A stretch of 64,000 bases of DNA from Klebsiella pneumoniae (GCA_945862145.1 CAMAXE010000005.1:99314-163313), one strand, 5' to 3'. Positions 26,607-46,900 are shown, counted from the first letter of the stretch. Notes: generated from the sequence alone by a model not told the origin. Program-made: numbers and translations.

Positions 26607-28442
26607 TCACCACCCGCACTGCTGCCCCTTGTTCTGCTCTTCGAGCCAGGTCTGCAGCGGCGCGAAATAGGCCACCACCGCCTTGCCGCTCATATCGGGC
26701 GATCCGGCGAAGGCCTCAAGCGCCTCGGGCCACGGGCGCGAGCGGCCCATCTCGAGCATCGCGTTCAACTTCGCGCCCACCTCCTTGTTGCCGTAGAAGG
26801 AGCAGCGGTGCAGCGGACCTTGGGAGCCCGCGATCTCGCAGGCCTTCTGATAGAACTGGAACTGCAGCATCCGCGCGAGGAAGTAACGCGTGTAGGGCGT
26901 GTTGCCGGGAATGTGGAACTTTGCGCCCGGATCAAAGTCGTCCTCGCTGCGCGGCACCGGTGAGACGACACCCATGTATTTGAGCCTGAGATCGGTCCAG
27001 CCCTTGTTCATCTCCGAGACGGGAATGCTGCCGTCGAAAACGCCCCAGCGCCATTTGTCGACGAGCAGGGTCCACGGGAGGCCGGGCACTTTCTCGAGCG
27101 CCTGGCGCAGCAGCAGGCCGATATCGCGCGATGCGTCCGGCACCTTCGATTTTTCCAGCAACCCGATCTGCACCAGATATTCCGGCGTCACCGAGAGCGC
27201 GATCATGTCGCCGATCGCCTCGTGGAAACCGTCGTTGGCGCTGCCCAGATACAGATAGGGTTGTTTGTTGTAAGCACGCTGGTAGAAGTTGTGACCGAGC
27301 TCGTGATGCACGGTCACGAAGTCACTCGCGTCCACCAGCGTGCACATCTTGATGCGCAAGTCGTCCTTGTTGTCGAGATCCCAGGCCGAGGCGTGGCAGA
27401 CCACCTCACGGTCACGCGGCTTCACGATCTGCGAGCGGGTCCAGAAAGTCTCCGGCAGCGGCGCGAATCCGAGCGAGTTGAAGAAGTTCTCGCCCGTCTT
27501 CACGATCTTCACCGCGTCGTACTGTTTCTTCACGAGCAGATCGCTGAGGTCGTAGCCGATGTCACCGGCACCAGCGGGCGCGGCAATGTCGTAGATGGAA
27601 TCCCACTGCTGTGCCCACATATTACCCAACAGGTCGGCGCGGATGGGGCCGGTGGCGAGCTGCACGCCATCACCATATTTCTGGTTCAGCTTACGGCGCG
27701 TGTAGCAATGCAGCTGGTCGTAGAGCGGTTTCACCTCACCCCAGAGCGAATCCGTGAGCGCGGCGAATTCCTCGGGCTGCATGTCGTAGTTGGAGCGCCA
27801 CATCGCGCCCAGATCCGCAAAGCCGAGTTCCTTCGCACCCTGGTTGGCGATATCGACCAGTCGCACGTAGTCCGCACGCATGGGCTTTCCTACCGCGTGC
27901 CAGGACGTCCACATCTCCTTCAATATTTCGGGGTCCCGCTCGGCGCCCATCAGCGCTTCGAGTTCAACGCCCGGCGTGGGCGTGCCCTTGTAGGTGCCCT
28001 TGCCCTTGCCATAGGCAGACTGCAGCCCCGTGGCAAGTGTGGCGAGTTCCTCGGCGGCTCCCGGCGTGGCGGGCGCGGGCAGCACGATCATCTGCTTCAG
28101 GGTGTCGAGCTTGCGGCGCGTGTCGAAAGAGAGCCCCGGCACCGCATCGAAACGCGCGGCATCCTTGGCGTAACGCACGGATTTCTGCACGCTCTCTGCG
28201 CCCACACGCGCCGATAGCCAGTCGGTGTCGTCGGTGAGGTAGGTGGCATTGATCCATGCCACCTTGGCCTCGTAGATCGCGAAGTCACCGAGGGATTTTT
28301 CCGCTTCCTGCACGAAGGCGTCGGCCTCGGCTGCGGTGGGCGCCACGGCTGCGGGCGCGGCGGCAACGCTCTCTTGCTTTTTGGCGCAGCCCGCGATGAG
28401 AGAGGCGCAGGCAACGGCGAGCGCAAGGGAGCGGATCTTCAT
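26607..28442 (-). CDS. Peptidase M2 (angiotensin-converting-enzyme-like peptidyl-dipeptidase), lipoprotein
   Basis: 'HHELGHNFY' HEXXH plus 'FHEAIGD' third zinc-ligand region, characteristic of the ACE family. Lipobox 'LIAGC'. Confidence 0.85.
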
Positions 28443-30185: not shown

Positions 30186-30472
30186 GTGGCGGTTCTCCTC
30201 ATATCGGGTTTCCCCGAAGGAACGCTAAGGATCAAGGGCGCTAAGCGCCAACAGCTCAAGCCTAACCGAAGCCAGTCTGCAAGCGCACCACCGGGATGGA
30301 TCCGACCGGGTCGGGTTCCCCCACACCCAGACCCGAACGCAGTAGTCGGAAATCTGCCGCAAAGGACATCCCGGGTATGACACAGCCGCTCGGGAGGGCT
30401 TGTCTTGGTCTATGCTGATATAGATCAATGTTTAACCGCCGATCAACTGCACGATCTGTTGAGGGATTCTGG

Positions 30473-31621
30473 GTGCTGGAGTGGCTCCAACGCAGGCGCA
30501 ACATCCGCCAGCGGCTGTCGGTTTGCCCGACGCCGGGGGGAGTTTCGCTGGCGCTCGCCGATCGCGACGAGAACGATGCGCTGGTGATTCGCTGGGCAGA
30601 GCATCTCACGCTGGAACCGGAGGCCGGTGACTCAGCACCCGGCAGCGCAGCCGCCGCAACGGAGACTGCAGCCACCCCCGACCAGCGCGCAGAGCAGCGC
30701 AGCAGCGACCGGCGCGGCAGCGACCGGCGTGCGACCGATCGCCGTCAGGGCGACCGCCGCCAGATGGACCGCCGCGATGGCGCGCAGGCAACCTCATCCG
30801 CAAGCCAGGCTACCGCGGACCCGCGACTCGTGGATCTTCTGCAGCGCTTTGTCCGCGAACGCAACCTGAAGAACATTCCCTGCACCGGCTTGCTGCGTGC
30901 CGGCGACTACAGCCTCGTCCTCGTCGATTCGCCGGACGTGCCACCCTCCGAAATCCGCTCGGCAATGCGCTGGCAGATCCGGGAGTTGATCGACTTCCAC
31001 ATCGATGACGCCGTGATCGATGTCTTCGACTTGCCCGAGCGAGACGGCCACCGTGCAAGACGCATGTACGCGGTGGCGGCGCGCCGGGAGCGCGTGCTCC
31101 AGCTCATAAGCCTGACGAACCTCTCAGGCCTCAACCTGCAGAGCATCGATATTCCCGAACTGGCGCTGCGCAACATCGCGGCACGCCTCCCGGAGGATGC
31201 GGGGGGAGTGGCACTCATAGCCCTCGATCGTCAGCAGGGCCTGATGACCGTGACGCGGCAGGATGCGCTCTATTTCTCCCGACGAGTCGACTGCAACACC
31301 GAGCGCCTGCTGGCAGCCTCGGAGGGCGAGGACCTCACCCCGGCCCTCGAGAGCCTGCTCGACGGCCTGACCATCGAGATCCAACGCTCACTCGACTTCT
31401 ACGAGCGACACTTCAGCCAGTCCTCGGTGGCGGGCATCGTGATCAGCCCTGTGCCGGGGTTATCCGACAAGGTGTGCGCCTATCTGCAGGCACAGCTCGG
31501 GATACCCACGCGCTGGCTCGATGTGGCCGCCCAATGCGTTGCGCCGGTCCCGGAGGCGGTGCTGGTGGAGGGGATCAGCGTCCTGGGTGGCGCCCTGCGC
31601 GAGGAGCAGGTCGCGCTATGA
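30473..31621 (+). CDS. mshI: MSHA-type pilus biogenesis protein MshI (PilM-like)
   Basis: ORF 30428-31621. GTG 30473 has GAGGGA 6 nt upstream; ATG 30428 has no RBS. The C-terminal ~260 aa resemble PilM/MshI. First gene of the msh-like locus. Confidence 0.7.
   Translation: MLEWLQRRRNIRQRLSVCPTPGGVSLALADRDENDALVIRWAEHLTLEPEAGDSAPGSAAAATETAATPDQRAEQRSSDRRGSDRRATDRRQGDRRQMDRRDGAQATSSASQATADPRLVDLLQRFVRERNLKNIPCTGLLRAGDYSLVLVDSPDVPPSEIRSAMRWQIRELIDFHIDDAVIDVFDLPERDGHRARRMYAVAARRERVLQLISLTNLSGLNLQSIDIPELALRNIAARLPEDAGGVALIALDRQQGLMTVTRQDALYFSRRVDCNTERLLAASEGEDLTPALESLLDGLTIEIQRSLDFYERHFSQSSVAGIVISPVPGLSDKVCAYLQAQLGIPTRWLDVAAQCVAPVPEAVLVEGISVLGGALREEQVAL
30704..30778 (+). repeat. Five degenerate 15-bp tandem repeats inside mshI encoding xDRRx
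   Basis: Codons read SDRRG-SDRRA-TDRRQ-GDRRQ-MDRRD, with the nucleotide unit (NNN)GAYCGNCGN(NNN). Embedded in an Ala/Ser/Gln-rich insertion. Confidence 0.8.
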
Positions 31622-32232
31622 GGCAGCAGATCAATCTCTACGACCCCATCCTGCGCCAGCCGAAACCGGTGTTTTCCGCGGTGGCGACGTTGCAGACTTT
31701 GCTGGTCGTGCTGACGGCACTGATTCTCTTCCACACCTATGCCCAATGGCAGGTGGCGGCACTCGCGGCCAGCGTCAAACAACTGCAGGCGAGCCACACA
31801 CTGGCCGGCCAGCGCTATCAGGAACTGCAGACCCGCAATCCCCGCAAGACTGCCGACACGGGCCTCGAGACCCGCGTCATGGTCCTGGCCACGGAGGTCG
31901 GCCGCGCCCACAAGCTGGCCGATGCGCTGAGCGCGGGGGCCTTCGGGAATGCCGCCGGCATGTCGGATTACCTGGTGGCGCTTGCGCGGCAGCGCATCGA
32001 GGGGCTGTGGCTCACCCGGATCGACATCCTCCAGGGTGGCCAAACCCTGAACCTCTCGGGCAGGAGCCTTGAGGCCGAGCGCGTGCCCCAGTACCTGCAG
32101 GGACTGTCGACGGAACGGGTCTTCAACGGTCGCACCTTTGGTCAATTAAAGCTGCAGCGCGACGATACCGGGCTGGATTTCATACTGGGCACGGCGGCCA
32201 CCAAGCCCGGCCCGGGAGGAAGCGGCGAATGA
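31618..32232 (+). CDS. PilN-like MSHA biogenesis protein (MshI2/PilN family)
   Basis: ORF 31474-32232. ATG 31618 overlaps the mshI stop (ATGA). N-terminus 'MRQQINLYDP' followed by a single TM helix, as in PilN-type proteins. Confidence 0.7.
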   Translation: MRQQINLYDPILRQPKPVFSAVATLQTLLVVLTALILFHTYAQWQVAALAASVKQLQASHTLAGQRYQELQTRNPRKTADTGLETRVMVLATEVGRAHKLADALSAGAFGNAAGMSDYLVALARQRIEGLWLTRIDILQGGQTLNLSGRSLEAERVPQYLQGLSTERVFNGRTFGQLKLQRDDTGLDFILGTAATKPGPGGSGE

Positions 32233-32960
32233 ACCAGATCCTTGCACCGCTGCTGGTTCGGCTGCGTGATCTTGGCAAACGCATCGATGCGCTGACGCTG
32301 AAAGAGCGCCTGCTGCTGGTCGCCGCCGCGCTGCTGCTGATGGTGTATGGCTGGAACCAGTGGTTCCTCGGACCGCTGGAGACCCAGCGCGCCACCCTGG
32401 TGGCCGAGCGCGATGCCGTGTCGCAAGAACTGTCCCGCTTCGATGCCCTCACCATCGAGTGGTCCGCCGCGGCTGCAGTAGACCCGGACGCGGAAAGCAA
32501 GCAGCGCATGGAGACGCTGACGCGCGAACTGAGGGAGATCGCCGCGACGATCGAGCAACGGGCCGGGCGCATGGTACCGCCAGAGCAAATGCCAGAAGTG
32601 CTGCATAAAGTGCTCTCTGGCCTGTCCGACCTGCGCTTCGAGAGCCTCGAGGGCTTGCCCACGCAACCGGTCATCGCCGAGGCCGAGCCCGGCGCCGCGA
32701 CCACCACTGGGGCGACGCAACCCGCCGCAGCCGACACCGCATCGGCCCGGGGCACGGCCCACTCCGCCTACCGCCATGGATTCCGCATACGCTTCAGCGG
32801 AAGCTACCGCGCCGTCACACAGTATCTGCAGCAACTGGAGAAATTGCCCTTCGGGTTTTTCTGGGACGAGTTGAGCCTGGATGCCAAGGAATTCCCCCAA
32901 CTGCGGGGTTCGCTCGTGGTCTACACTGTTAGCTTGGATCAGGGGTGGATCGGTGTCTGA
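32229..32960 (+). CDS. mshJ: MSHA biogenesis protein MshJ (PilO-like)
   Basis: ATGA overlap with the preceding gene. N-terminal TM helix plus coiled-coil, then a PilO-like C-terminal domain. Position matches mshJ. Confidence 0.7.
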   Translation: MNQILAPLLVRLRDLGKRIDALTLKERLLLVAAALLLMVYGWNQWFLGPLETQRATLVAERDAVSQELSRFDALTIEWSAAAAVDPDAESKQRMETLTRELREIAATIEQRAGRMVPPEQMPEVLHKVLSGLSDLRFESLEGLPTQPVIAEAEPGAATTTGATQPAAADTASARGTAHSAYRHGFRIRFSGSYRAVTQYLQQLEKLPFGFFWDELSLDAKEFPQLRGSLVVYTVSLDQGWIGV

Positions 32961-33316
32961 GCAGAGATGCTTGGCCGTAGCTGCGTGTCTGGCGGCCTGT
33001 TTGGCGGGCGGTCATGCACTGCCTGCGTGGTCCCAAGAGCGGCCCACCGAGGAACTGGGAGACCCCATGCGTCCGCCCCAAGTGCAGGCCGCACCCACCG
33101 TGGAGGGCGACGCGGCGCCGCAGGCGCAGGCAGTGCTGCGCCTGCAGGCCATCAAGAGCGAGCGCGGTCGGCGCGTGGCTGTAATCAACGGCAAGGTCGT
33201 CCGCGTGGGCGACGAAGTGGACGGGGCAACGATCACAGGTATCGCTGCCAACAGCGTTGTCATTCTTGCGGAGGGGAAGTCGTCGGTATTGAAGCTGCTG
33301 GGGCAGGACGTAAAGC

Positions 33317-33339
<23 letters not shown>
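32953..33339 (+). CDS. mshK: MshK-like small exported protein
   Basis: In-frame GTG 32953 overlaps the mshJ stop (the track ORF starts at 32881). Signal 'LAVAACLAACLAGGHALPAWS'. C-terminal 'RRVAVINGKVVRVGDEVDGATITGI' resembles MshK. Confidence 0.65.
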
Positions 33340-35089
<1,750 letters not shown>

Positions 35090-35119
35090 GACACGCGGAC
35101 ACAACACCCGGCATCGCTC

Positions 35120-36064
35120 ATGTACCTACAGCATTTCCGGTTGAACGAGCTGCCCTTCACCCTAACGCCGGACACGGCGTTCTTCATGGGCAGCGCAGGC
35201 TATCGCGACGCGCTGAACGTGTTGTTGGTGGCGCTGCGCAGCGGTGAGGGCTTCACCAAGGTGGTCGGCGAAGTCGGCACGGGCAAGACGCTGCTCTGCC
35301 GCACACTCCTGAAAACACTGACACCCGAGTTCCATATCGCCTACCTGCCCAACCCGTATCTGCGACCCTCGAGCCTGCTGCTATCGATCGCCGACGAACT
35401 AGGGATCAAATACCCCAAACGCGCCAGCCAGCACGAATTGCTGAGCCGCATAAACGACGGACTGCTGGCCTCGCACACGGAAGGACGGCGAGTGGCGCTG
35501 TGCATGGACGAAGCCCAAGCGGTGCCCCTGCAGACGCTGGAGACGCTGCGCCTGCTGACCAATCTCGAGACCGAAAAGACCAAGCTGCTGCAGGTGGTTC
35601 TTTTCGGCCAGCCCGAATTGGACAAAGTGCTCGACGACCCCGCCATCCGCCAGCTGCGCCAACGCATCACCTTCAGCTACCAGCTGCAGCCGATGGGCCG
35701 TGAAGGCGTGGAGGAATACCTGCGGCACCGACTCGCCGTGGCCGGCTACGACGGTCCGCGACTCTTTGACTCCCGAGCGGTGGATCTCATCTACCGAGGC
35801 AGCGGTGGCGTTCCGCGCCTGATCAACATCCTGGCGCACAAGTCCCTGATGGCCGCCTTCGGTGAGGGGGAAGCTCGGGTGGGCAAGGTCCACGCGCGTC
35901 GCGCAGTGGAGGATACCGATGATGCCCGCTCGGTCACGAGGACCGGTGTCAGCGTGTTGTCTTGGCTGAAGCGGCTCTGGAGCCGCTTTGCAGGCCTGTT
36001 CGGCGCCATCGCCGCAATCGGGATCGCTCTCGAGCTGCGACACCTCTCAGGGTTGATCGGATGA
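35120..36064 (+). CDS. mshM: MshM, ExeA-like AAA ATPase
   Basis: Walker A 'GEVGTGKT' and Walker B 'VALCMDEAQ'. N-terminus 'FRLNELPFTLTPDTAFF' typical of ExeA/MshM. Confidence 0.85.
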   Translation: MYLQHFRLNELPFTLTPDTAFFMGSAGYRDALNVLLVALRSGEGFTKVVGEVGTGKTLLCRTLLKTLTPEFHIAYLPNPYLRPSSLLLSIADELGIKYPKRASQHELLSRINDGLLASHTEGRRVALCMDEAQAVPLQTLETLRLLTNLETEKTKLLQVVLFGQPELDKVLDDPAIRQLRQRITFSYQLQPMGREGVEEYLRHRLAVAGYDGPRLFDSRAVDLIYRGSGGVPRLINILAHKSLMAAFGEGEARVGKVHARRAVEDTDDARSVTRTGVSVLSWLKRLWSRFAGLFGAIAAIGIALELRHLSGLIG

Positions 36065-37215
36065 GCCTGATCAACCGCATGCTGACCGACCTTGAGGAGC
36101 GTCGGGGCGGCAACCTTCGCAACGTCGATCACGCGCTGGACGGCCTGCGACCCACCTCGGGCGGGCCGCCGAAGTCTCGCCCGCGAAGCCGTCGGGGGAG
36201 CGCGGCCGCCATTGCCGTCATCGCCGTGCTGGCCGCGCTTTCAACCTATATTTTCCTGCGCGTTGATGCCGCCGTTGCCCCCGCGCCGACCGTGACTGAG
36301 ACCGCCGCACGCAGCGACAACGCCGCGGCTCCCGCAACCGCCCAAGCCCCTGCGCAACCGCCTGCCGTTACGCCCCCAGCCGCAGCAACGGGAGAGCAAT
36401 CCGTAGCGGTCGTCCTGAATGATGTTCCCCGTAAAGCCGTGACGGATGAGCCACAACCCGCGGCGCCCGTTACACCAGTGGAGGAGCCGGCGCCGATGCC
36501 CGGGGCCACGCAGGAAACCACAGCAGCCACACCATCACCGCCTGCCGTGGCAACACCGAAACCCATGCTGTCCCAGCCGAACACCGAAGAGCACCGCGAG
36601 CCGCTGGTGAACACCTCACCAAAATCCGACGCCAGGCGCTCGGGTAGTCGCAAGGCGGAGCGCTCCACCGCGACAAACAGCACAAACCCCGCCCCCGCAA
36701 CGCAAGTCGAGAGTGAGGGCAGCTTCTTCCTTGCCGATGCCGCACCGCCGACCGGCGCCGCCGACCGGGCAATTACCATGCTGGAAGAGGGCGACACCGA
36801 AGGCGCCGAAGCAATGCTGCGCGAGGGCCTGGCCACGGCGCCCGGCGACACCTCCATGGCGCGGGTGCTGGGGCATATCCTGCTCGCGCGCAACGATGCG
36901 TCCGGCGCGGTGCAGGCACTGCGCCCCGCGGCGCCCACACTGGAGTCAGATCCCGATTACCACGCGTTGCTGGCAGCGGCCGAGCAGCGCAGCGGCGCAC
37001 ACGGCGCGGCCATCCGCCGCTACCGCGAGCTGCTCCGGCTGCAGCCGGCCAACGGACCGTGGCTCGCAGGACTGGGGATCTCGCTGCAGGCGAGCGGCGA
37101 TGAGCCCGGCGCGGCAGAGGCGTTCCGCAAGGCGCTGGCAGATCCTGCACTGCCGCCACCGCTACACGATTTCGCCATGCAGCAGGCAATGCAGATCAAG
37201 GAGCGGCAGCCGTGA
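36061..37215 (+). CDS. mshN: MshN, TPR-repeat pilus biogenesis protein
   Basis: ORF 35962-37215. ATG 36061 overlaps the mshM stop (ATGA). N-terminus 'MSLINRMLTDLEERR', one TM helix, an Ala/Pro-rich linker and C-terminal TPR-like repeats. Confidence 0.75.
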   Translation: MSLINRMLTDLEERRGGNLRNVDHALDGLRPTSGGPPKSRPRSRRGSAAAIAVIAVLAALSTYIFLRVDAAVAPAPTVTETAARSDNAAAPATAQAPAQPPAVTPPAAATGEQSVAVVLNDVPRKAVTDEPQPAAPVTPVEEPAPMPGATQETTAATPSPPAVATPKPMLSQPNTEEHREPLVNTSPKSDARRSGSRKAERSTATNSTNPAPATQVESEGSFFLADAAPPTGAADRAITMLEEGDTEGAEAMLREGLATAPGDTSMARVLGHILLARNDASGAVQALRPAAPTLESDPDYHALLAAAEQRSGAHGAAIRRYRELLRLQPANGPWLAGLGISLQASGDEPGAAEAFRKALADPALPPPLHDFAMQQAMQIKERQP

Positions 37216-38990
37216 ACATAGCCCGCAAGAAGCTGCGCCTCGGCGATCTTCTGGTCGAAAGCAAGATCATCTCGCAACTCCAACTGGACACCGCACTGGA
37301 GGAACAGCGCAAGCTCGGCCGCAAGCTTGGGCGGATACTGGTCGACAAGGGTTATCTCACCGAGGACGGCCTGCTCTCTTTCCTGTCGCGCCAGCTCGCG
37401 GTGCCCTTCGTCGAGCTGAGCCACTACCAGTTCGAGCCCGCGGTGATTGCCCTGCTGCCCGAGATCTACGCCCGGCGGTTCCGCGCCATCGCCCTGAAAG
37501 ACAAGGGCGACTCGCTGCTGCTCGGGATGTCCGATCCCACCAACCTGTTCGCCTATGACGAGCTAGCGCGCATCATTGGCCGACCGATCGACATAGCCGT
37601 GGTGCGCGAGCAGGAACTGCTCGACATCATCGAGCGCGTCTACAAGCAGACCGATCGTATCAGCGGTATCGCCGAACAATTGAGCGACGAGCTCCGGGAA
37701 GGGGATTTCGACGTCGCGCAGCTCGCGGCGGATGCCGACCTCAGCGAAGCACCGGTGGTGAAGCTGCTGCACACGCTGTTCCAGGCCGCCGTGCAGGCGC
37801 GCGCCTCGGACATACACATCGAGCCCGATGAATCGGTGCTGCGCATCCGTCAGCGCATCGATGGCGTGCTGCTCGAGCAGGTGCTGAACGAACGCCGCAT
37901 CGCGCCGGCGCTGGTGCAGCGGCTGAAGCTGATGTCACAGCTCGATATCGCCGAAAAACGCCTGCCGCAGGATGGCCGTTTCAGCATCAAGGTGGGCGAC
38001 CGCCTGATCGACGTCCGTGTCTCCACCATGCCCCTGCAACACGGCGAATCCGTGGTGATGCGTCTGCTCGACCACCGCGAGGGTGTGAAGGATCTCGATG
38101 CCCTCGGCATGCCGGCCAATATCCTGCGCCGCTTCATGACGTCCATCCGCCGGCCCCACGGCATGGTGGTGGTGACCGGGCCCACCGGCAGCGGCAAGAC
38201 CTCCACGCTCTATTCAGCGCTCAAGCTGCTGAACGAGGCACGCTCGAAGATCGTCACCGTGGAAGACCCCGTGGAATACCGCCTGCCGCGCGTCAACCAG
38301 ATCCAGGTGAACCCGCAGATAGGCCTCACCTTCGCGCGCGTGCTGCGCACCACCTTGCGACAGGATCCCGACATTATCCTGGTGGGCGAAATGCGTGACC
38401 AGGAAACCGTGGAGATAGGTCTGCGGGCTGCCATCACGGGCCACTTGGTGCTCACCACGCTGCACACCAATGACGCCATCAGCACCATCACCCGCCTGCT
38501 CGACATGGGTGCCCCGAACTATCTGCTCGCCTCGGCCCTGCACGCCGTGATCGCGCAACGGCTGGTTCGTAAGGTCTGCGACAACTGCGCGCAACCCGAG
38601 CAGCCTACCGGGGCCGCACTCGGCTGGCTGCGCCTGAAGACCGGTCAGCAGGAACCCACCGGACTGTGGCGGCATGGCACGGGCTGCCACCAGTGCAGCA
38701 ACACCGGCTACAGGGGTCGTGTTGGCATCTACGAGATGCTGGTGGTCAGCCCGGCAATGAGCACCGCGTTGGCGGCCGGCGACTTCGTGGGTTTTGCCGA
38801 ACTCGGACGCTCGAGCCCGGGGTACCGCTCGCTGGAGCTGGCCGCACTGGATCGCGCGGCCGAGGGCGTAACCAGCATAGAAGAAGCCATCCGCGTCGCT
38901 GCCGAAAGTCTGCTGGCCGGCGACGAGGGCGAAGATGAAGACCTGCTTCCCGCACCACACGCCCCGCTCGAGCCGGCTGAATTGACGTGA
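37212..38990 (+). CDS. mshE: MshE, GspE-family pilus extension ATPase with N-terminal MshEN (c-di-GMP-binding) domain
   Basis: Tandem 'RLGDLLV...LEEQ' and 'KLGRILV...LSRQ' motifs, Walker A 'GPTGSGKTST', Walker B 'ILVGEMRD', His box 'GHLVLTTLHTN', and tetracysteine 'CDNC...CHQC'. GTGA overlap with mshN. Confidence 0.9.
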   Translation: MNIARKKLRLGDLLVESKIISQLQLDTALEEQRKLGRKLGRILVDKGYLTEDGLLSFLSRQLAVPFVELSHYQFEPAVIALLPEIYARRFRAIALKDKGDSLLLGMSDPTNLFAYDELARIIGRPIDIAVVREQELLDIIERVYKQTDRISGIAEQLSDELREGDFDVAQLAADADLSEAPVVKLLHTLFQAAVQARASDIHIEPDESVLRIRQRIDGVLLEQVLNERRIAPALVQRLKLMSQLDIAEKRLPQDGRFSIKVGDRLIDVRVSTMPLQHGESVVMRLLDHREGVKDLDALGMPANILRRFMTSIRRPHGMVVVTGPTGSGKTSTLYSALKLLNEARSKIVTVEDPVEYRLPRVNQIQVNPQIGLTFARVLRTTLRQDPDIILVGEMRDQETVEIGLRAAITGHLVLTTLHTNDAISTITRLLDMGAPNYLLASALHAVIAQRLVRKVCDNCAQPEQPTGAALGWLRLKTGQQEPTGLWRHGTGCHQCSNTGYRGRVGIYEMLVVSPAMSTALAAGDFVGFAELGRSSPGYRSLELAALDRAAEGVTSIEEAIRVAAESLLAGDEGEDEDLLPAPHAPLEPAELT

Positions 38991-40213
38991 CCACCTACCA
39001 GTACCGCGGACGCGGTCGCCGCGGCGATCTGCTCGAGGGCGCGCTGGAGGCCGCCTCCACCGAGGCGGTGGCGCGCCAGTTGATGAACAGCGGCATCACC
39101 CCGATCGATATCAGCGAAGCCCGCCCGCGCGCGGACGTCTTTGAATCACTGCGTCGCCGGCGCGACCCGGTGGCGCCGGAACTCTCCGAGCTGGTGCTGC
39201 TCTCGCGGCAGATGTACACACTCATGAAAGCAGGGGTTCCGCTCGCGCAGGCACTGCTCGGTCTGGCCAGGTCAAACCGCAACAATATGCTCCGCGAGGT
39301 ACTGGAGAACGTCAAAGCCACCGTGGAAGGCGGCCGCGAGCTGTCGGCAGCACTCGCCCAGCACCCGAAGATATTCTCGTCGCTCTACGTAAACACGGTG
39401 AAAATCGGCGAGAACACGGGGCGGCTGGACGAGGCGTTCCTGCGGCTCTCGGAGTATCTCGACCGAGATCGTGATACGCGCAGCCGCATCAAGACGGCCC
39501 TGCGCTACCCCTCCTTCGTGCTCGTGGCGATCTCCATCGCCATCGGCGTGATCAACGTGATGGTGATCCCGCAATTTGCCAAGATCTTCGAGCGCGCACA
39601 TGTCGCGCTCCCGCTGCCCACCCGGCTCATCATCGGCACGTCCAATTTCTTCGTGAGCTGGTGGCCGGCGTTGATAGCGCTCGCCATAGGGGCTGCGGTG
39701 GGATTCCAGGTCTGGCGCCGAACTGAGGAAGGCACCTACCGCTGGGACGGGTTCAAGCTGCGGATTCCCATCGTCGGCGACATCATCTACCGGGCCACAC
39801 TGGGCCGCTTTGCGCGGGGGTTTGCGATGGCACTGGCGGCCGGCGTACCCCTCACGCAGGCGCTCTCGATCATGGCGCAGGCAGTGGACAACGAGTACAT
39901 CGGCGAACGGATCCGCAATATCCGCACGGGCGTCGAGCGCGGCGAGTCTCTGACCCGCACTGCTACGGCCACTGGCATGTTCACGCCGCTGGTACTGCAA
40001 ATGCTTGCGGTGGGGGAGGAAGCCGGGGCCATCGACACCCTGCTAACCGAGGTCGCAGGTTTCTACGAGCGGGAAGTAGATTATGACGTCAAGAACCTGA
40101 GTCAGGCGATCGAGCCCATCCTGATCGCGGTGCTGGCGGGTTTTGTGCTGATTTTTGCCTTGGGGGTCTTCCTGCCTTTGTGGGACCTGGCACTGGTGAA
40201 GACGAAGGGCTGA
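38987..40213 (+). CDS. mshG: MshG, GspF/PilC-family platform protein
   Basis: 408 aa, with the duplicated GspF domain architecture and three hydrophobic segments. GTGA overlap with mshE. Confidence 0.9.
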   Translation: MTTYQYRGRGRRGDLLEGALEAASTEAVARQLMNSGITPIDISEARPRADVFESLRRRRDPVAPELSELVLLSRQMYTLMKAGVPLAQALLGLARSNRNNMLREVLENVKATVEGGRELSAALAQHPKIFSSLYVNTVKIGENTGRLDEAFLRLSEYLDRDRDTRSRIKTALRYPSFVLVAISIAIGVINVMVIPQFAKIFERAHVALPLPTRLIIGTSNFFVSWWPALIALAIGAAVGFQVWRRTEEGTYRWDGFKLRIPIVGDIIYRATLGRFARGFAMALAAGVPLTQALSIMAQAVDNEYIGERIRNIRTGVERGESLTRTATATGMFTPLVLQMLAVGEEAGAIDTLLTEVAGFYEREVDYDVKNLSQAIEPILIAVLAGFVLIFALGVFLPLWDLALVKTKG

Positions 40214-40254
40214 GAGATACGCGTGCCGAGGCCGGAAAAAATACCGGCTTGGTG

Positions 40255-40270
40255 CGGCATTCAGCGAGCA
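40255..40270 (+). promoter_or_regulatory. Possible sigma-54 (-24/-12) promoter for the pilin block
   Basis: CGGCAT-TCAGC-GAGCA versus consensus TGGCAC-N5-TTGCA. The GG (40256-57) and GC (40268-69) dinucleotides are at the correct 12-nt offset, about 48 nt upstream of the pilin GTG. Weak match. Confidence 0.25.
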
Positions 40271-40317
40271 CCGTGCTAGTATCAAATCCGGCTCATGAAC
40301 CATGGCGAGGTTTCTGC

Positions 40318-40761
40318 GTGCAACGTCAATCCGGTTTTACCCTGATCGAACTCATCACCGTGATCGTGATCCTCGGCGTACTCGCCGCCTTCGCGGTCCC
40401 GCGGTTCTCCGGTCTGGAGACCCAAGCCCGCATCTCCGCCGTCAACGCACTGGCCGGCAGCGCCCGCAGCGGGGCGGCGTTGGCGCATGCAATCTGGCTC
40501 GCCAACGGCGCGGCGAGCAATGCCTCCGTCACCATGGAAGGTTCGACGGTAGCCATGACCTTCAGCTACCCCTCGGCCCTGTCGACCGGCATAGAAGCAA
40601 CCCTGCAGGACATCACGGGGTTCACTGGCGCGGTGGTCGGCTCTACTTACGTTTTCAGCTTCACCGCGGCACCCACCGCTGCCAATTGCAAGGTCACGTA
40701 TACCCCGGCGGCCTCTCTCACGACCGCGCCAAGCTTTAGCACCACGACCGGCGGGTGCTGA
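40318..40761 (+). CDS. mshA: MshA-like type IVa major pilin, paralogue 1
   Basis: In-frame GTG 40318 inside ORF 40180-40761. Leader MQRQSG|FTLIELITVIVILG with Glu5. Cys pair 'ANC...GGC*' reaches the C-terminus. Confidence 0.85.
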   Translation: MQRQSGFTLIELITVIVILGVLAAFAVPRFSGLETQARISAVNALAGSARSGAALAHAIWLANGAASNASVTMEGSTVAMTFSYPSALSTGIEATLQDITGFTGAVVGSTYVFSFTAAPTAANCKVTYTPAASLTTAPSFSTTTGGC

Positions 40762-40792
40762 TAGGCACACCTCCAAACGACACCCCGCTCCG

Positions 40793-41311
40793 TTGGCAGC
40801 GCAGGTTCGTTTCGAACTGTGCCGCGGCCGCTCGGGTGGCGCGCGTAGCGACGGCGGCTTCACTCTGGTAGAACTGGTCACCGTGATGGTGATTGCAGGT
40901 ATCCTTGCCGCGGTGGCCAGTCCCAGGTTTTTCTCCAACGACAGCTTCAAGATCGCCGGCTTCGCAGGAGAGGTGCGCTCGGGACTGCGCCATGCACAGG
41001 CCGTGGCCATGGCTTCGGGCTGCGATATCCGGGTGTCTCTGGGATCGAGCGACTTCGTGCTGCAGCGCTGGTCGGGGGGCTTGGGCTGCAATGACCACAG
41101 CGGATCGCTGGTCACCCTGACACGCCCTGGCGGAGGGAGTTTCCTGGCCAGCGTGCCCGCGAACGTCTCCATCGGCACCGCAAACGTTTATTTCGACAGC
41201 ATGGGCAAGCCCCACGATGCGGCTTCGGGCGCGCTGCTCGGTTCAGCGCTGTCGCTTGCCATCGGCACCGACACCATCACGGTCAACGCCGAAACGGGCT
41301 TCGTCCAGTGA
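40793..41311 (+). CDS. mshC: GspH/FimT-like minor pilin (MshC-like)
   Basis: 'GG|FTLVELVTVMVIAGILA' prepilin N-terminus followed by a GspH-type 'FAGEVRSGLRHAQAVAMASG' region. TTG start gives an unusually long 22-aa leader, so the start is uncertain. Confidence 0.7.
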   Translation: MAAQVRFELCRGRSGGARSDGGFTLVELVTVMVIAGILAAVASPRFFSNDSFKIAGFAGEVRSGLRHAQAVAMASGCDIRVSLGSSDFVLQRWSGGLGCNDHSGSLVTLTRPGGGSFLASVPANVSIGTANVYFDSMGKPHDAASGALLGSALSLAIGTDTITVNAETGFVQ

Positions 41312-41871
41312 GAGGCCCCGGATCCCAGCGCGGACTCACTTTCATAGAACTGATCGCCAGTATCGTCATCATCTCGGTGGCTACCATCGGGCTCATGGCA
41401 GCCGTATCGGCAGCGGTAGGCCGCAGCGCCGACCCCCTGATCCAGATCCAGGCGACTGCCATTGCCGCAGCCTACCTGGAGGAGGCTACCCTCGCGCCGC
41501 TCTGCGACCCTTCCTATGGTCCCGACGGCAACGCCTCCACCACCTGTCGCGACGAGTGCACCACCAGCCCCTGCAGCGGCGGCTGCGGCGGCGCGATCTT
41601 CGGCGCCGAAACCGGGCGCTCCTCGTTTGACGACGTCTGCGACTACAGCGGCCTGCGCGACAGCGGCGCCAAGGACCGCCAGGGCGCGGCACTGAGCGGC
41701 CTGTCCGGCTACACGGTGAATGTCTCGGTGCTGGACGGCAGCAGCGTCTCGCTGGGCAGCCCGGCCCTTAGCGCCACCGCAGGGCGGGTGGTGCGGCTAG
41801 AGGTTCAGGTGTCTAATCCGGGCCTTAACTCCCCGATCACCCTCGTCGGCTACAAGGCAAACCTCGAGTGA
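41308..41871 (+). CDS. mshD: Minor pilin, MshD-like
   Basis: 'RG|LTFIELIASIVI' prepilin N-terminus. Cys-rich central segment. GTGA overlap. Confidence 0.7.
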   Translation: MRGPGSQRGLTFIELIASIVIISVATIGLMAAVSAAVGRSADPLIQIQATAIAAAYLEEATLAPLCDPSYGPDGNASTTCRDECTTSPCSGGCGGAIFGAETGRSSFDDVCDYSGLRDSGAKDRQGAALSGLSGYTVNVSVLDGSSVSLGSPALSATAGRVVRLEVQVSNPGLNSPITLVGYKANLE

Positions 41872-42764
41872 GGCACGCAGCGGGAAGCACGGCGCGCGGA
41901 TTCACGCTGATCGAACTGGTCACGGTGATCACGCTGAGTGCGATCCTGAGCGTGGTGGTGTGGCGTAACATCAGCCTGCCCATAAGGGCGTTTTCCGATA
42001 TCACACGCCGCGCGGAAACAGTAGCAACCGCCCAACTGGCCATGGAACGAATGGCTCGTGAAATCCGCCTTGCGCTGCCTAACAGTCTGCGGGTATCGGG
42101 AGACGGCTCGGCCATCGAACTGCTGCGCACGTCATCAAGCGGGCGCTATCGCGCCGAGCTGAATCCGAGCGACGCCGCCTCCGACGCGCTTAACCTCAGT
42201 GCCAGCAGCGACACCTTCCAGGTGCTCGGAAGCTGGAGCATGCCAGCCGGCCTGCGCACCGGTAGCGGGCTGCCCCAATGCCTTGCGGGTACGGCCGATT
42301 GCCTCGCGATCTACAACACCGGAAGTCCCGCAACCTGCAGCAGCCAGACAGCGGGCACACGCACCAATGCGTGGTGCGGCGACAATCTGGCTGGCATCCT
42401 GAGCGCCAATTCGACAACCGGCGTGGTATCTGCAAGTCGCGCCTCGGCAGGCACCGCATGGCCGACCGGTTCACCGCAGCAACGCTTTTACGTGGTCGAT
42501 ACGGCGCTCAGCTTCGTCTGCGCCGACGGCATGCTGCGCCGATATTCGGGTTATGCCATTGCCAGCACCCAGCCGGTGCCGCCTGCCGTGACCGGGGCGC
42601 TGCTCGCCGATCACATCGGCGCCTGCACCTTTAGCTACGAGGCTGGCAGTGCATCGCGCGCGGGGCTGTTATCCATCCAGCTGACCCTGTCCTACTCGAC
42701 GCCCGACGAAACCACCGAACAGTTATCCCTGCTCGAACAAGTACACGTGCCCAACTCGCCATGA
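41868..42764 (+). CDS. mshO: Minor pilin/biogenesis protein, MshO-like
   Basis: 'RG|FTLIELVTVITL' prepilin N-terminus. 298 aa; size and position match mshO. GTGA overlap. Confidence 0.7.
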   Translation: MRHAAGSTARGFTLIELVTVITLSAILSVVVWRNISLPIRAFSDITRRAETVATAQLAMERMAREIRLALPNSLRVSGDGSAIELLRTSSSGRYRAELNPSDAASDALNLSASSDTFQVLGSWSMPAGLRTGSGLPQCLAGTADCLAIYNTGSPATCSSQTAGTRTNAWCGDNLAGILSANSTTGVVSASRASAGTAWPTGSPQQRFYVVDTALSFVCADGMLRRYSGYAIASTQPVPPAVTGALLADHIGACTFSYEAGSASRAGLLSIQLTLSYSTPDETTEQLSLLEQVHVPNSP

Positions 42765-43171
42765 ACAGCCCAAAGTACCCGCGGGGATTCTCCCTGGTCT
42801 CGGCCGTATTCCTGCTGGTCGTAGTAGCACTTATCGCGGGCTATGCCGTGTCGATCGGCACCTCGCAGCAGGCGGACAGCTCGCTCGCGCTGCTGGGCAA
42901 GCGAGCAGACTTTGCGGCGCGCAGCGGTCTCGAATGGGCCATCGCCCGGGTCCTGCAGGACAGCAGCTGTCCCCCAAGCGGCACGACGTTCTCCCCTGCG
43001 GGCACCGGAATCGGCAATTTCGTGGTGTCAGTGAGCTGCAGTTCGACGACGGTGTCCGAGGGCGCGAGCACCTACCCTGTTTACAGCCTGGGCGTGACTG
43101 CGACCCTGGGCAGCGAGGGTACCGAGGACTTCGCGAGACGCAGCCTGAGCGCCCAGGTGAGCGGTACCTGA
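42761..43171 (+). CDS. mshP: MshP-like protein (pilin-like N-terminus lacking Glu5)
   Basis: 'PRG|FSLVSAVFLLVVVALIAG'. 136 aa. ATGA overlap with the preceding gene. Confidence 0.6.
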   Translation: MNSPKYPRGFSLVSAVFLLVVVALIAGYAVSIGTSQQADSSLALLGKRADFAARSGLEWAIARVLQDSSCPPSGTTFSPAGTGIGNFVVSVSCSSTTVSEGASTYPVYSLGVTATLGSEGTEDFARRSLSAQVSGT

Positions 43172-43262
43172 AAAAGTCCCTGCGCTTGACGCTGCCGTGG
43201 CTGGCCTTCCCGCAAATCAGTGCTATTCTTCACTTAATCAATCTGCCTAGGAGATCGCTTCC

Positions 43263-43703
43263 GTGCAACGTCAGTCTGGCTTCACGCTCATAGAACTTAT
43301 CACTGTCATCGTCGTACTCGGCATTCTTGCCGCGTTCGCCATCCCGCGATTCGCGGGCCTCGAAACGCAAGCCAGGATAGCAACCGTCAAAGGGATGGCA
43401 GGAGCGGTCAAAAGCGGTGCGGCACTTGCCCATGCACTGTACATCGTTGACGGCAGCAACCCCGCGACCGTCACGATGGAAGGCCAAGCGGTCGCTATCG
43501 TCAATGGCTACCCCTCCGATGCGGTAGCGGGGATCGTGAAAACCATACAGGACACCACAGGCTTTACCTCGGCAGCAAATAGCAACGGCTGGCTCTTGTC
43601 CTTCACGAATGCACCGACCGCGGCCACCTGCTCGGTTGAATACATAGAACCTGCGGCACTCAACACGCCGCCCACGGTTACCATTCTCGACGGCGGCTGC
43701 TAA
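43263..43703 (+). CDS. mshA: MshA-like type IVa major pilin, paralogue 2
   Basis: GTG start 9 nt after AGGAG. Same leader as paralogue 1 (MQRQSG|FTLIELITVIVVLG) and same '...TC...GGC*' Cys pattern. More A/T-ending codons, including four ATA Ile codons. Confidence 0.85.
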   Translation: MQRQSGFTLIELITVIVVLGILAAFAIPRFAGLETQARIATVKGMAGAVKSGAALAHALYIVDGSNPATVTMEGQAVAIVNGYPSDAVAGIVKTIQDTTGFTSAANSNGWLLSFTNAPTAATCSVEYIEPAALNTPPTVTILDGGC

Positions 43704-43996: not shown

Positions 43997-46900
43997 ATGC
44001 TTTCGCTCGCTTTCGGCCTGCAGTTCACCGACCTCTACGCGCGTGACGGCCTGCTGCGAATTGACCAGGCTTTCCTCGAGCACCTGGCGGCCGCGGACGC
44101 ATCCCTCCGGGACACCCTGCGGGGTGCCCGACAGGCGCCTGCAGCGCTCGCCCGCAAGGCCGAATCCGAACTCCTGATCGCGCTCGCCTCGCATTTGGAA
44201 GACTTCATCGCGCGGCTCTTTGGTATCGAGTCCGAAGCACGCGCACTGGCCGCGACTCACCACGCACTCGCCCCGCTCTACACCGTGAAGCGGCTCTTCG
44301 TGCAGCGCTTCGCACTCACGAAAATCAAGGAAGCCGATCTGGCCGGATTTGATCCGGAAGCTACGCGCACGTCGCTCTTTGGTACGGATTTCAGCGAACT
44401 GGGGTTTGCCCATCAGGTGCTCGTCTGGCAACGGGACGAGACGGCCAACGCCGCCGAACTCGGTCTTGCCGCACGCTATGCCGCATGGGCCGCAGGCACG
44501 GCCGCAGGACGTGCCCTGCACGGCCAAGGCGTGCTGTTCAAGGCGCCCAAAAAACTGGATCACCAGCGACTGGTGCCGCTGGTCACCGAGGAAACTCTCG
44601 GCTTCTCCCGTCACAGCCTGGAACACACACGCCGGCGCGAGGGCTTTGCACTCACCGATGAAGGCACGGATCTGGCCGGGGCGCTGGACGAGGCGAACTA
44701 CTGCATCTGGTGCCACGAGCAGGGTCGCGATTCCTGCTCCAGCGGCCTGCGCGAGAAAGCCGCCAAGGGCGCCCCGCCCGAGAGCGCGCCCTTCCGCAAG
44801 AGCCCCTTCGGCGTGACGCTCGCGGGCTGCCCGCTCGAGGAAAAAATCTCCGAATTCCACCTGGTGAAGACCCGCGGCGAACCGCTCGCGGCGCTGGCGA
44901 TGATCGTGGTGGATAACCCGATGGCAGCCGCCACCGGGCACCGCATCTGTAACGACTGCATGAAGTCCTGCATCTACCAGAAACAGGATCCGGTCAACAT
45001 CCCGCAGGCCGAGACCCGCACGCTCAAAGACGTGCTAGAACTGCCCTGGGGCTTCGAGATTTACTCGCTGCTCACACGCTGGAATCCGCTCAATATCCAC
45101 CGCCCCGTGCCGCTGCCAGACAGCGGCCGCAAGGTGCTGGTCGTGGGCCTGGGGCCGGCGGGTTTCACGCTGGCGCATCACCTGATGAACGACGGCCATA
45201 CGGTGCTCGGCATCGACGGTCTGAAGATCGAGCCACTGGAGCCGGAGCTCTCGGGCGTGGGCGGCACGGGGCGCACACCCTTTGTGCCAGTGCATCGCAT
45301 CGAGGACCTGCGCGAACCGCTCGATGCGCGCGTGATGGCGGGTTTCGGCGGCGTTGCCGAATACGGCATCACGGTGCGCTGGGACAAGAACTTCCTGAAG
45401 CTGGTGCGGTTGCTGGTGGAGCGACGCGAGCAGTTCGCGATGTTCGGCGGCGTGCGCTTCGGCGGCACGCTCACCGCAGACGACGCCTGGCGCATGGGCT
45501 TCGACCACATCGCGCTCTGTATCGGCGCGGGCGGTCCCACGGTGCTCGACATACCCAACGGTCTGGCGCGCGGCGTACGCGCGGCATCGGATTTCCTGAT
45601 GGCGCTGCAGCTGACCGGTGCGGCCAAGCAGGATTCCATCGCCAACATGCAACTGCGCCTGCCTGTGGTGGTGATTGGCGGTGGACTCACTGCCATCGAC
45701 ACCGCCACCGAATCGCTCGCCTATTACGTGGTGCAGATCGAGAAATTCTTGGCCCGCTACGAGACGCTGGCACGGGAAAACAGCGAGGAATCCGTGCGCG
45801 CAAGCTGGGATGACTACGAGCGTGAGATCGCCGAGGAATTCCTCGCCCATGCGCGCGCCATCCGCCAGGAACGCGCGCAGGCCGCCACCCAGGGGCGCAA
45901 TGCGCGGGTGGTCGAGATGCTGCGCCACTGGGGTGGGGTGACCATCGCCTACCGGCGGCGTCTGATCGACAGCCCCTCCTACACGCTGAATCACGAGGAA
46001 GTCGAGAAGGCGCTGGAGGAAGGCATCTGGTTCGCCGAGGGGCTGAGTCCCACCGGCGTCGACGTTGACCACTATGGCGCGGCCCGCGGCATACGCCTGA
46101 AGAACGGCCAGACCGGCACCGAGCACTGGTTCCCTGCACGCACGGTATTCGTGGCCGCAGGCACGCAGCCCAACACCGTGCTCGCGCGCGAATTCCCCGG
46201 CAGTTACACGCTGGACAGAAAGTACTTCGCGGCGGTCGACGAAGCGGGTCATCCGGCAAAACCCGAGAAAGGCGCGGCCAAACCTGCCACCCCGCAGGTG
46301 CTCATGAAGCGCGAGCCTGACGGGCGCTTCATCAGCTACTTCGGTGACGTGCACCCCAGCTACTTCGGCAATGTCGTCAAGGCGATGGCTTCCGCCAAAC
46401 AGGGCTATCCGGTGGTCTCACGCGCGCTCGCCGGCCGTACACCGCAGGCAGCCACAGGTGGCGTGGAATTCCTCGCCGCTTTCGGGCCACAGTTGTTGGC
46501 GACGGTGCACCATGTCGAGCGGCTGACGCCCACCATCGTCGAGGTGGTGGTGCACGCACCGCTCGCGGCAGCCCGCTTCCAGCCCGGGCAGTTTTACCGC
46601 CTGCAGAATCTCGAAAACCGGGCGCCGGCAATCGATGGCACCCGCTTGCAGATGGAAGGCCTCGCCATGACCGGCGCCTGGGTCGACCGCGAGCAAGGGC
46701 TGGTGTCGGTGGTCGCGCTGGAGATGGGCGGCTCGAGCAACCTTTGCGCGATGCTCCAGCCCGGTGAGCCGGTGATTCTGATGGGCCCCACCGGAGCGCC
46801 CACCGAGATCGAACCCAACGAGACCGTGCTGCTCTGCGGCGGCGGTCTTGGCAATGCGGTGCTGTTCTCGATCGGCGCGGCATTCCGCGCCGCGGGCTCG

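Follow-up and report, generated by a model that had tools for sequence, protein, structure and literature searches.

The window analysed here is a 64,000-nt stretch of a record filed under Klebsiella pneumoniae (GCA_945862145.1, CAMAXE010000005.1:99314-163313); it carries, at 30428-43703, a gene cluster for a type IV pilus of the mannose-sensitive haemagglutinin (MSHA, or MSH) class. MSHA pili act in surface attachment and biofilm initiation and serve as a model for the control of pilus dynamics by cyclic di-GMP (c-di-GMP). As a first-pass annotation of the window had it, the locus comprises 15 co-directional genes, all on the + strand: the open reading frame (ORF) listing and a frame analysis of GC content at third codon positions (GC3) agree on them, all 15 showing the high-GC3 signature of real genes (window GC ~66%), and on identical metagenome contigs these 15 are also what an independent gene caller finds, except that it starts gene 1 (at 30473) and gene 4 (at about 33067) later. 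The eight 4-nt overlaps reported earlier are all present, as ATGA at 31618, 32229, 36061 and 42761 and as GTGA at 37212, 38987, 41308 and 41868; the other six junctions are two overlaps (8 and 23 nt, start-dependent) and four gaps (30, 104, 31 and 91 nt). The same locus, identical or nearly so, is found on several metagenome contigs and in the metagenome-assembled genome (MAG) GCA_947446145.1, and none of the 15 ORFs is interrupted in any of four independent assemblies. The genes are listed below with the basis of each assignment; the canonical reference is the chromosomal msh locus of Aeromonas caviae (L092 in our numbering of loci).

30428..31621, +: mshI, PilM-like cytoplasmic actin-fold protein (PilM_2, AlphaFold2 fold, Aeromonas MshI match)
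31618..32232, +: PilN-like gene, equivalent to Aeromonas mshI1 (Pfam PilN above cut-off)
32229..32960, +: mshJ, PilO/GspM-like bitopic inner-membrane protein (Aeromonas MshJ homology)
32953..33339, +: mshK, small periplasmic PilP/GspC-HR-like protein (Aeromonas MshK homology; start uncertain)
33317..35089, +: mshL, outer-membrane secretin (TIGR02519 pilus_MshL)
35120..36064, +: mshM, ExeA-like AAA ATPase (AAA_22, Aeromonas MshM)
36061..37215, +: mshN, with a Pro/Ala-rich linker ahead of a C-terminal tetratricopeptide repeat (TPR) domain (TPR_19, Aeromonas MshN)
37212..38990, +: mshE, extension ATPase with N-terminal MshEN (NF053729, MshEN, T2SSE)
38987..40213, +: mshG, polytopic inner-membrane platform protein (T2SSF twice, Aeromonas MshG)
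40318..40761, +: g10, major pilin paralogue A1, MshA/MshB-type (N_methyl, TIGR02532, Aeromonas pilins)
40793..41311, +: g11, GspH/FimU-like minor pilin in the mshC position (N_methyl, Aeromonas mshC-position gene)
41308..41871, +: g12, putative minor pilin in the mshD / GspI position (gene order and conservation in relatives)
41868..42764, +: g13, mshO, GspJ/PilW-like minor pilin (gspJ, Aeromonas MshO)
42761..43171, +: g14, mshP, GspK/PilX-like minor pilin without Glu5 (weak GspK, Aeromonas MshP)
43263..43703, +: g15, major pilin paralogue A2 (N_methyl-type pilin, 59% identical to A1)

Judged from gene content and homology, the MSHA (MSH)-type identity of the locus is confirmed. The MSH model of Denise et al. 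(MacSyFinder/TXSScan) has mshA, mshE, mshG, mshL plus mshM as mandatory genes, and all MSH loci are reported to be single loci holding no prepilin peptidase (PMC6668835). All five mandatory genes are present here, within 15 contiguous genes and with no prepilin peptidase among them, the presence of mshG, mshM and mshA being judged by T2SSF, AAA_22 and N_methyl together with phmmer matches to Aeromonas rather than by MacSyFinder profiles. By phmmer, 13 window products match the Aeromonas caviae proteins encoded at the corresponding positions (E from 1e-7 to 1e-204), and all the gene assignments of the first-pass annotation survived comparison with NCBIfam and Pfam models and with the Aeromonas proteins. 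The alignment proteins MshI/J/K (PilM/N/O/P-like) of the canonical set are present too, the direct evidence for PilO and PilP being weak.

MshL exceeds the cut-off of the TIGR02519 pilus_MshL equivalog (272.1 bits vs 250.2), with GspD, PilQ and other secretin models below theirs; Pfam finds Secretin and Secretin_N_2 in it, its N-terminus has a lipoprotein-type LLAAC, and it contains a Gly-rich linker. MshM (Pfam AAA_22, 5e-30) matches Aeromonas MshM at 6e-86 by phmmer, and JGI annotation calls members of its cluster MshM; MshN, with TPR_19 and related Pfam models, matches its Aeromonas namesake at 4e-8, and the two genes sit between those for the secretin and the ATPase. MshE scores 69.3 against a cut-off of 38 for the c-di-GMP motif model NF053729 and 64.3 against 23.1 for MshEN (PF05157), carries Pfam T2SSE as well, and over residues 3-144 matches the N-domain structure of V. 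cholerae MshE (5HTL, E=6e-29). Two 24-residue motifs, R9-Q32 and K38-Q61, can be read in it five residues apart, as can the Walker A GPTGSGKT and a CxxC...CxxC cluster; also retained are Leu10, Leu54 and Leu58, the three residues replaced in the V. cholerae mutant mshE L10A/L54A/L58A (PMC7096442). MshG has two Pfam T2SSF domains (3e-57) and a phmmer match to Aeromonas MshG at 3e-128. Among these genes mshL shows some strain variation: the poly-Gly linker is encoded by a perfect GGTGGC tandem repeat of 6.3 copies (33905-33942), and the protein is 588 or 590 aa long depending on the strain.

The Pfam PilM_2 cut-off is barely reached by MshI (27.6 bits vs 27); its AlphaFold2 model, built from 120 homologues (predicted local distance difference test, pLDDT, 83.9), has the PilM structures 5EQ6, 5EOU and 2YCH as best Foldseek matches in the Protein Data Bank (PDB; E about 1e-16). 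It matches Aeromonas MshI at 1e-11 (phmmer), JGI annotation calls its homologues MshI, and its true start is likely 30473, giving 382 aa. The next gene clears Pfam PilN (26.6 vs 22.8) and matches the Aeromonas PilN-like gene at 1e-9; the N-terminus of its product, MRQQINLY, resembles the PilM-binding INLL motif of PilN. MshJ gives a weak, sub-threshold T2SSM match (E=0.004, 17.7 bits vs 27.8) and a phmmer match at 3e-19 to Aeromonas MshJ, which itself clears the Pfam PilO cut-off. MshK, whose start is either the GTG at 32953 or the later one of the gene caller, has weak matches to GspC_delta (9e-6), T2SSC and T2SSB, and matches Aeromonas MshK at 1e-10. Profiles from ortholog alignments of MshJ and MshK, compared with the PDB, returned coiled-coil noise, GspB/GspC at E>0.1 and no significant PilO; because these searches are weak, the PilO- and PilP-like assignments rest on the Aeromonas homology. 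NCBIfam has no MSHA-specific models besides MshL, and even Aeromonas MshI, J, K, F and Q get no MSHA-specific match, so that missing matches for genes 1-4 carry no information.

Two of these genes have unusual segments. (i) MshI bears an insertion of ~58 aa (window 30629-30802), disordered in the AlphaFold2 model (pLDDT below 50), with five tandem [STGM]DRR[GAQD] pentapeptides (repeats at 30704-30778); about 25 close MshI homologues have this DRR insertion, with the pentapeptide repeated 4-8 times; in more distant relatives MshI is 315 aa long and lacks it. The repeat junctions read RxxD (RGSD, RATD, RQGD, RQMD), like the c-di-GMP I-site motif, any link being speculative. (ii) Within mshK (window 33000-33250), the strain contigs L002 and L003, near-identical elsewhere, show 27 mismatches crowded into 250 nt, and MshK is 93% identical between them where neighbouring genes are 99-100% identical; this points to recombination of a patch or to local hypervariability.

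Six pilin-like genes follow mshG, five with a G|(F/L)T(L/F)(I/V)E prepilin motif and one without Glu5, as the earlier reading of the N-termini had it: MQRQSG|FTLIEL in both g10 and g15, ...DGG|FTLVEL in g11, QRG|LTFIEL in g12, ARG|FTLIEL in g13, and PRG|FSLVS, with Ser at +5, in g14. A1 (g10) has a leader of 6 residues and a pair of Cys at the C-terminus, hits N_methyl and TIGR02532, and matches Aeromonas pilins at up to 7e-23. The g11 product hits N_methyl and, weakly, GspH and ComGD, and matches the Aeromonas mshC-position gene at 2e-10; for g12 the sole family match is N_methyl, at threshold. MshO (g13) matches NCBIfam gspJ (3.9e-5) and Aeromonas MshO (9e-12), its homologues are called MshO by JGI, and its AlphaFold2 model (pLDDT 93.2) has EpsJ (2RET_B) as top, weak PDB match by Foldseek (E=0.045). 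MshP (g14, 136 aa) has a weak GspK match (0.0028) and matches Aeromonas MshP at 2e-7. The minor pilins are, as first described, bracketed by two major-pilin paralogues: A2 (g15) is 59% identical to A1, has a lower GC3 (0.67), and represents a second major pilin after mshP that is seen only in this species and is absent from that place in all other related loci. A2 sits where mshQ lies in the loci L014 and L091; in L010 a tandem pair of pilins lies upstream of the minor ones. Elsewhere among related msh loci, the major pilin is in many cases directly followed by a Wzy_C + TPR gene (O-antigen-ligase-like; e.g. L008, 7028-8968), about 15 census loci having an ORF of 610-680 aa at that place. The gene may encode a pilin glycosylase and is found neither in the window locus nor in its clade.

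The absence of mshH, mshF and mshQ from the locus, also claimed at first pass, is borne out by neighbours, gap and searches alike, and holds for the whole window. In place of a CsrD-like mshH, the upstream neighbour of mshI is a divergent gamma-glutamyltranspeptidase (GGT) gene; the mshG-pilin gap, where mshF would lie, is only 104 nt. Since a phmmer search with a single MshQ had missed the MshQ of L014, a profile hidden Markov model (HMM) was built from 11 MshQ sequences, and it found nothing in the window or in Q-less relatives. In the same set, tblastn with four MshQ sequences gave only matches with E>1, and a six-frame scan for the C-terminal MshQ motif FG[IV][FY]..G...IY.RE gave none; no locus product ends in this motif, no mini-MshQ or remnant was found at the window or Q-less loci, and a search with the closest MshQ, that of L014, yielded no candidate from this species. 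The locus contains no substitute adhesin gene. The possibility that the 1158-aa ORF downstream (43997-47473, +) is MshQ was weighed and dropped, for it is a GltD/PyrK-type oxidoreductase, a fusion of glutamate-synthase-beta-like and PyrK-like modules (PRK06567, 780 bits). The upstream flank includes a bacterial angiotensin-converting-enzyme-like peptidase M2 (26607-28442, -, 703 bits). Neither flank has anything to do with pili, and the remainder of the window codes for metabolic enzymes and transporters; its annotated ORFs include no Peptidase_A24 (prepilin peptidase) and no PilT, and Rfam, tRNA, promoter and terminator scans of locus and window gave nothing above background.

A census was taken of 80 loci, drawn from an MshG alignment in species-representative genomes and annotated by phmmer against the window proteins and by the MshQ HMM; nearly all are from uncultured Gammaproteobacteria of lakes, groundwater and sediments. 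A separate PilN-like gene occurs in 34 of the 36 loci having a full-length mshI (median 321 aa), and the fused form in none, so the split is the general state. The first-pass annotation was thus right that MshI function is spread over two genes and wrong to treat this as peculiar to the locus, since Aeromonas and the census share it; likewise its 'non-Vibrio architecture' does differ from Vibrio, but by the same comparisons is mostly normal outside that genus. MshQ (DUF6701), a protein of about 1000-1600 aa in the canonical Vibrio/Aeromonas/Shewanella set, is usually present in census loci, its position highly variable. We note at least four positions or orientations (L009, L014, L024, L039, L068, L090 and others), namely after mshP, directly upstream of mshI, in the interval between major and minor pilins, and divergent from mshP, unusual mobility for a component of a single-locus system. 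Most distant loci have a pilin-like ORF of ~180-210 aa after mshG that is missing in the window's clade. This ORF (L009 4804-5385 and equivalents, 57 loci) has a degenerate N-terminal hydrophobic helix, e.g. NLSRLELAL..., and no Pfam match; an HMM of these 'F-like' ORFs misses the Aeromonas mshF-position gene and cross-matches pilins, so that orthology to Vibrio mshF is unproven.

In a neighbour-joining tree of MshE, MshG and MshL, the window groups with L010, L013, L011, L012, L007, L017 and L014, and L016 has the same gene content as this clade. The mshF-position gene is lacking throughout the clade, and mshQ is kept only by L014 and its relative L091; the loss of both marks a clade with eight or more uncultured gammaproteobacterial members. 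A downstream SpoU-DHOdh-TPR-NtrX-NtrY flank is common to L014/L091 and to the Q-less L007, L011, L012, L016 and L017, and with flanks so shared a clean deletion of mshQ would be the simplest history, one that may have occurred more than once. As the absence of mshH, mshF and mshQ is common to a conserved clade, 'streamlined MSHA variant', the term used at first pass, is a fair description. The remaining genes are under purifying selection and are not decaying: every gene compared with its L010 and L013 counterparts has a ratio of nonsynonymous to synonymous substitution rates (dN/dS) in the range 0.08-0.38, at dS of about 0.8-1.3; A2, which those relatives lack, was compared with their major pilin.

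We therefore consider it very likely that the locus encodes a functional MSHA-class pilus in a clade that lost first the mshF-position gene and then mshQ, and whose pilus tip probably consists of minor pilins only. Its working can be sketched from the protein families. The extension ATPase MshE, activated by c-di-GMP at its MshEN domain, would drive the platform protein MshG, and an alignment subcomplex of MshI, the PilN-like protein, MshJ and MshK would bridge the inner membrane to the secretin MshL. For MshM and MshN, it is known from V. cholerae that deletion of either gene did not reduce surface pili (PMC4624765). The four H-, I-, J- and K-like minor pilins would prime a fibre built from A1, A2 or both, and the genes for the prepilin peptidase and any retraction ATPase would have to lie elsewhere, which is the case for all MSH loci. 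With the pilin-like mshF-position gene and then the ~1000-aa DUF6701 MshQ lost, the pilus would assemble with a tip of minor pilins only. That a pilus without MshQ is plausible follows from the V. cholerae delta-mshQ strain, whose surface piliation is reduced but not abolished and whose pili are still retractile (PMC7096442).

To our knowledge, MshQ is the only candidate tip adhesin of these pili. A recent preprint (10.64898/2026.02.14.705861) predicts it to be a PilY1-like licensing factor: tip complexes would need a donor of a C-terminal beta-strand, either MshQ, whose C-terminal strand is predicted to complement the PilK-like MshP, or an extended PilK-type pilin, and where a PilY1-type protein is missing, PilK is reported to carry an additional strand. 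When MshP proteins of Q-positive and Q-less loci were aligned, their lengths and C-termini were indistinguishable and no compensating extension was seen, so the predicted extension is not found here. Possibilities for the tip are MshQ supplied in trans, a self-assembling tip, or another protein replacing MshQ. The 'different tip or adhesin arrangement' proposed at first pass is thus right as to the absence of MshQ from the window and overstated as to a new arrangement, which is plausible and no more. A working MSHA pilus with no MshQ genome-wide and an unextended MshP would be a natural counter-example to the licensing rule, by which strand complementation comes from a PilY1/MshQ-type protein or a GspK-type extension; we put this forward tentatively, as something that may well not hold. 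Were it true, the H-I-J-K-like minor pilins would license themselves or a different partner would give the strand, a candidate being A2, placed exactly at the former mshQ site.

Several points weigh against a functional pilus with a tip of minor pilins. The organism is known only from metagenomes and the pilus from its genes alone. The search for mshQ, pilD and pilT covers 64 kb of the genome, and any unlinked copy would lie beyond it. With MshP unextended, such a tip is unexplained by the beta-strand-donor model of the preprint. And the assignments of mshJ, mshK and the mshD-position gene rest on weak matches, transitive homology or gene order.

The alternative that fares best has MshQ encoded elsewhere and joining the tip complex in trans, the locus then being canonical MSHA with one accessory gene moved to another site. 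The wide variation in mshQ position among relatives, the lack of a compensating MshP extension and the 64-kb reach of the search all suit this view. However, every MshQ homologue whose context was examined adjoins msh genes (~27 census loci plus L090, L091, L094 and L095), which makes an unlinked copy less likely; the L014 query gave no candidate from this species, and the flanks common to Q-positive and Q-less relatives fit deletion and not translocation. On balance we think relocation unlikely, though it deserves to be kept in mind beside the MshQ-free pilus that we favour.

Far less probable is that the locus encodes not MSHA but a type II secretion system (T2SS) or a canonical PilMNOPQ type IVa pilus (T4aP). 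Matches to GspE, GspF, GspD, PilB and PilQ are strong, the minor pilins weakly match the GspH, GspJ and GspK models, and MshI has a PilM fold; yet the first five of these models stay under their cut-offs (GspD 180 vs 351, GspE 538 vs 630 and GspF 325 vs 424 for T2SS; PilQ 128 vs 284 and PilB 558 vs 676 for T4aP) while MshL clears its own, and Tad models fail their cut-offs as well. These cut-offs serve as a proxy for placement relative to T2SS and T4aP, the tree covering MSH-like loci only. The MshEN domain, the pair of ExeA-like and TPR genes and the organisation of all genes in one locus are MSH features; GspC and GspL give no above-threshold match, the only GspM signal is the sub-threshold T2SSM on gene 3, and the window has no PilD or PilT. 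Five mandatory genes in a single locus without prepilin peptidase lead us to reject the T2SS, T4aP and Tad readings, and the MSHA assignment stands under the model comparison that was proposed with it. Weakest of all, a decaying remnant in which the loss of mshF and mshQ marks inactivation, with pseudogenisation under way, could appeal to the two missing accessory genes of canonical systems and to the lowered piliation of V. cholerae delta-mshQ (PMC7096442), but is largely refuted by 15 intact ORFs with coupled starts, a gene set conserved in at least eight species-level genomes and dN/dS of 0.08-0.38.

The host is an uncultured gammaproteobacterium of fresh water, rich in GC. This environmental msh locus also turns up in MAG records that bear the title 'Klebsiella pneumoniae' or 'Klebsiella sp.' (L011, L016 and L066), whose MshG reaches 80% identity to that of the window; these records are evidently taxonomically mislabelled.

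As far as its genes tell, the locus is a functional reduced variant of a known system, recognisable to standard annotation; its real distinction is membership of a small clade without mshF and mshQ, plus the species-specific extra pilin. The tip is the sole point at which it bears on an open issue: a clean mshQ deletion with purifying selection elsewhere would offer a natural MshQ-free background, in which one could ask whether MshQ is needed in assembly and what carries adhesion without it. The rest is routine annotation, pipelines already naming the closest homologues MshI, MshM and MshO, with the reminder that the gene list given in textbooks for Vibrio does not describe MSH architecture in general.

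Comparison with named systems places the locus as follows. L014 and L091 (groundwater and other MAG loci) have the same 14-gene order and no mshF-position gene, the window MshG being 73% identical to that of L014; unlike the window, they keep a 990-1015-aa DUF6701 MshQ right after mshP and have one major pilin only. The Aeromonas caviae locus (msh, also called Bfp) runs CsrD-like MshH, MshI, PilN-domain gene, J, K, L, M, N, E and G, followed by a 152-aa mshF-position gene, two major pilins, C, O, P and MshQ. Its PilM-like (291 aa) and PilN-like (197 aa) genes are separate, as in the window, and the Aeromonas gene list accordingly has mshI and mshI1 (PMC11688387); unlike the window, it keeps the CsrD-like MshH, the mshF-position gene and MshQ after MshP, and its two major pilins (B, A) stand in tandem before the minor pilins, where the window has A1 before and A2 after them.

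The V. cholerae MSHA locus spans 16.7 kb in two operons, mshI-F and mshB-Q, and its MshI is described as GspL-like plus PilN superfamily, i.e. fused (PMC4624765). The window shares with it the core order, I-J-K-L-M-N-E-G and after these the pilins A, C, D, O and P; a secretin of MshL type, an ExeA-like MshM, a TPR protein as MshN and a c-di-GMP-binding MshEN are common to both, and neither locus holds a prepilin peptidase or retraction ATPase. The window differs in having no CsrD-like mshH neighbour, mshF or mshQ, in its pilin order (A1-C-D-O-P-A2 against B-A-C-D-O-P-Q), and in an MshI that is PilM-like only, with a separate PilN-like gene, the V. cholerae fusion being taken from the cited description and not from sequence. 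An msh-like cluster was also noticed on a 365-kb MOBH plasmid of Legionella adelaidensis (L093; NZ_LR134433.1, 257543-268967), in the order four pilin-like genes, PilM-like, PilN, J, K, mshL, AAA, TPR and GspE-family ATPase, with no platform gene after the ATPase. Finally, the minor pilins recall the T2SS pseudopilus tip GspH-I-J-K: four of them stand in H-, I-, J-, K-like order, the last lacks Glu5, and there is no large tip protein. GspK, however, is reported to have its own extra beta-strand (10.64898/2026.02.14.705861), whereas the window MshP (136 aa) is unextended, and the remaining machine of the window locus is of MSH type.

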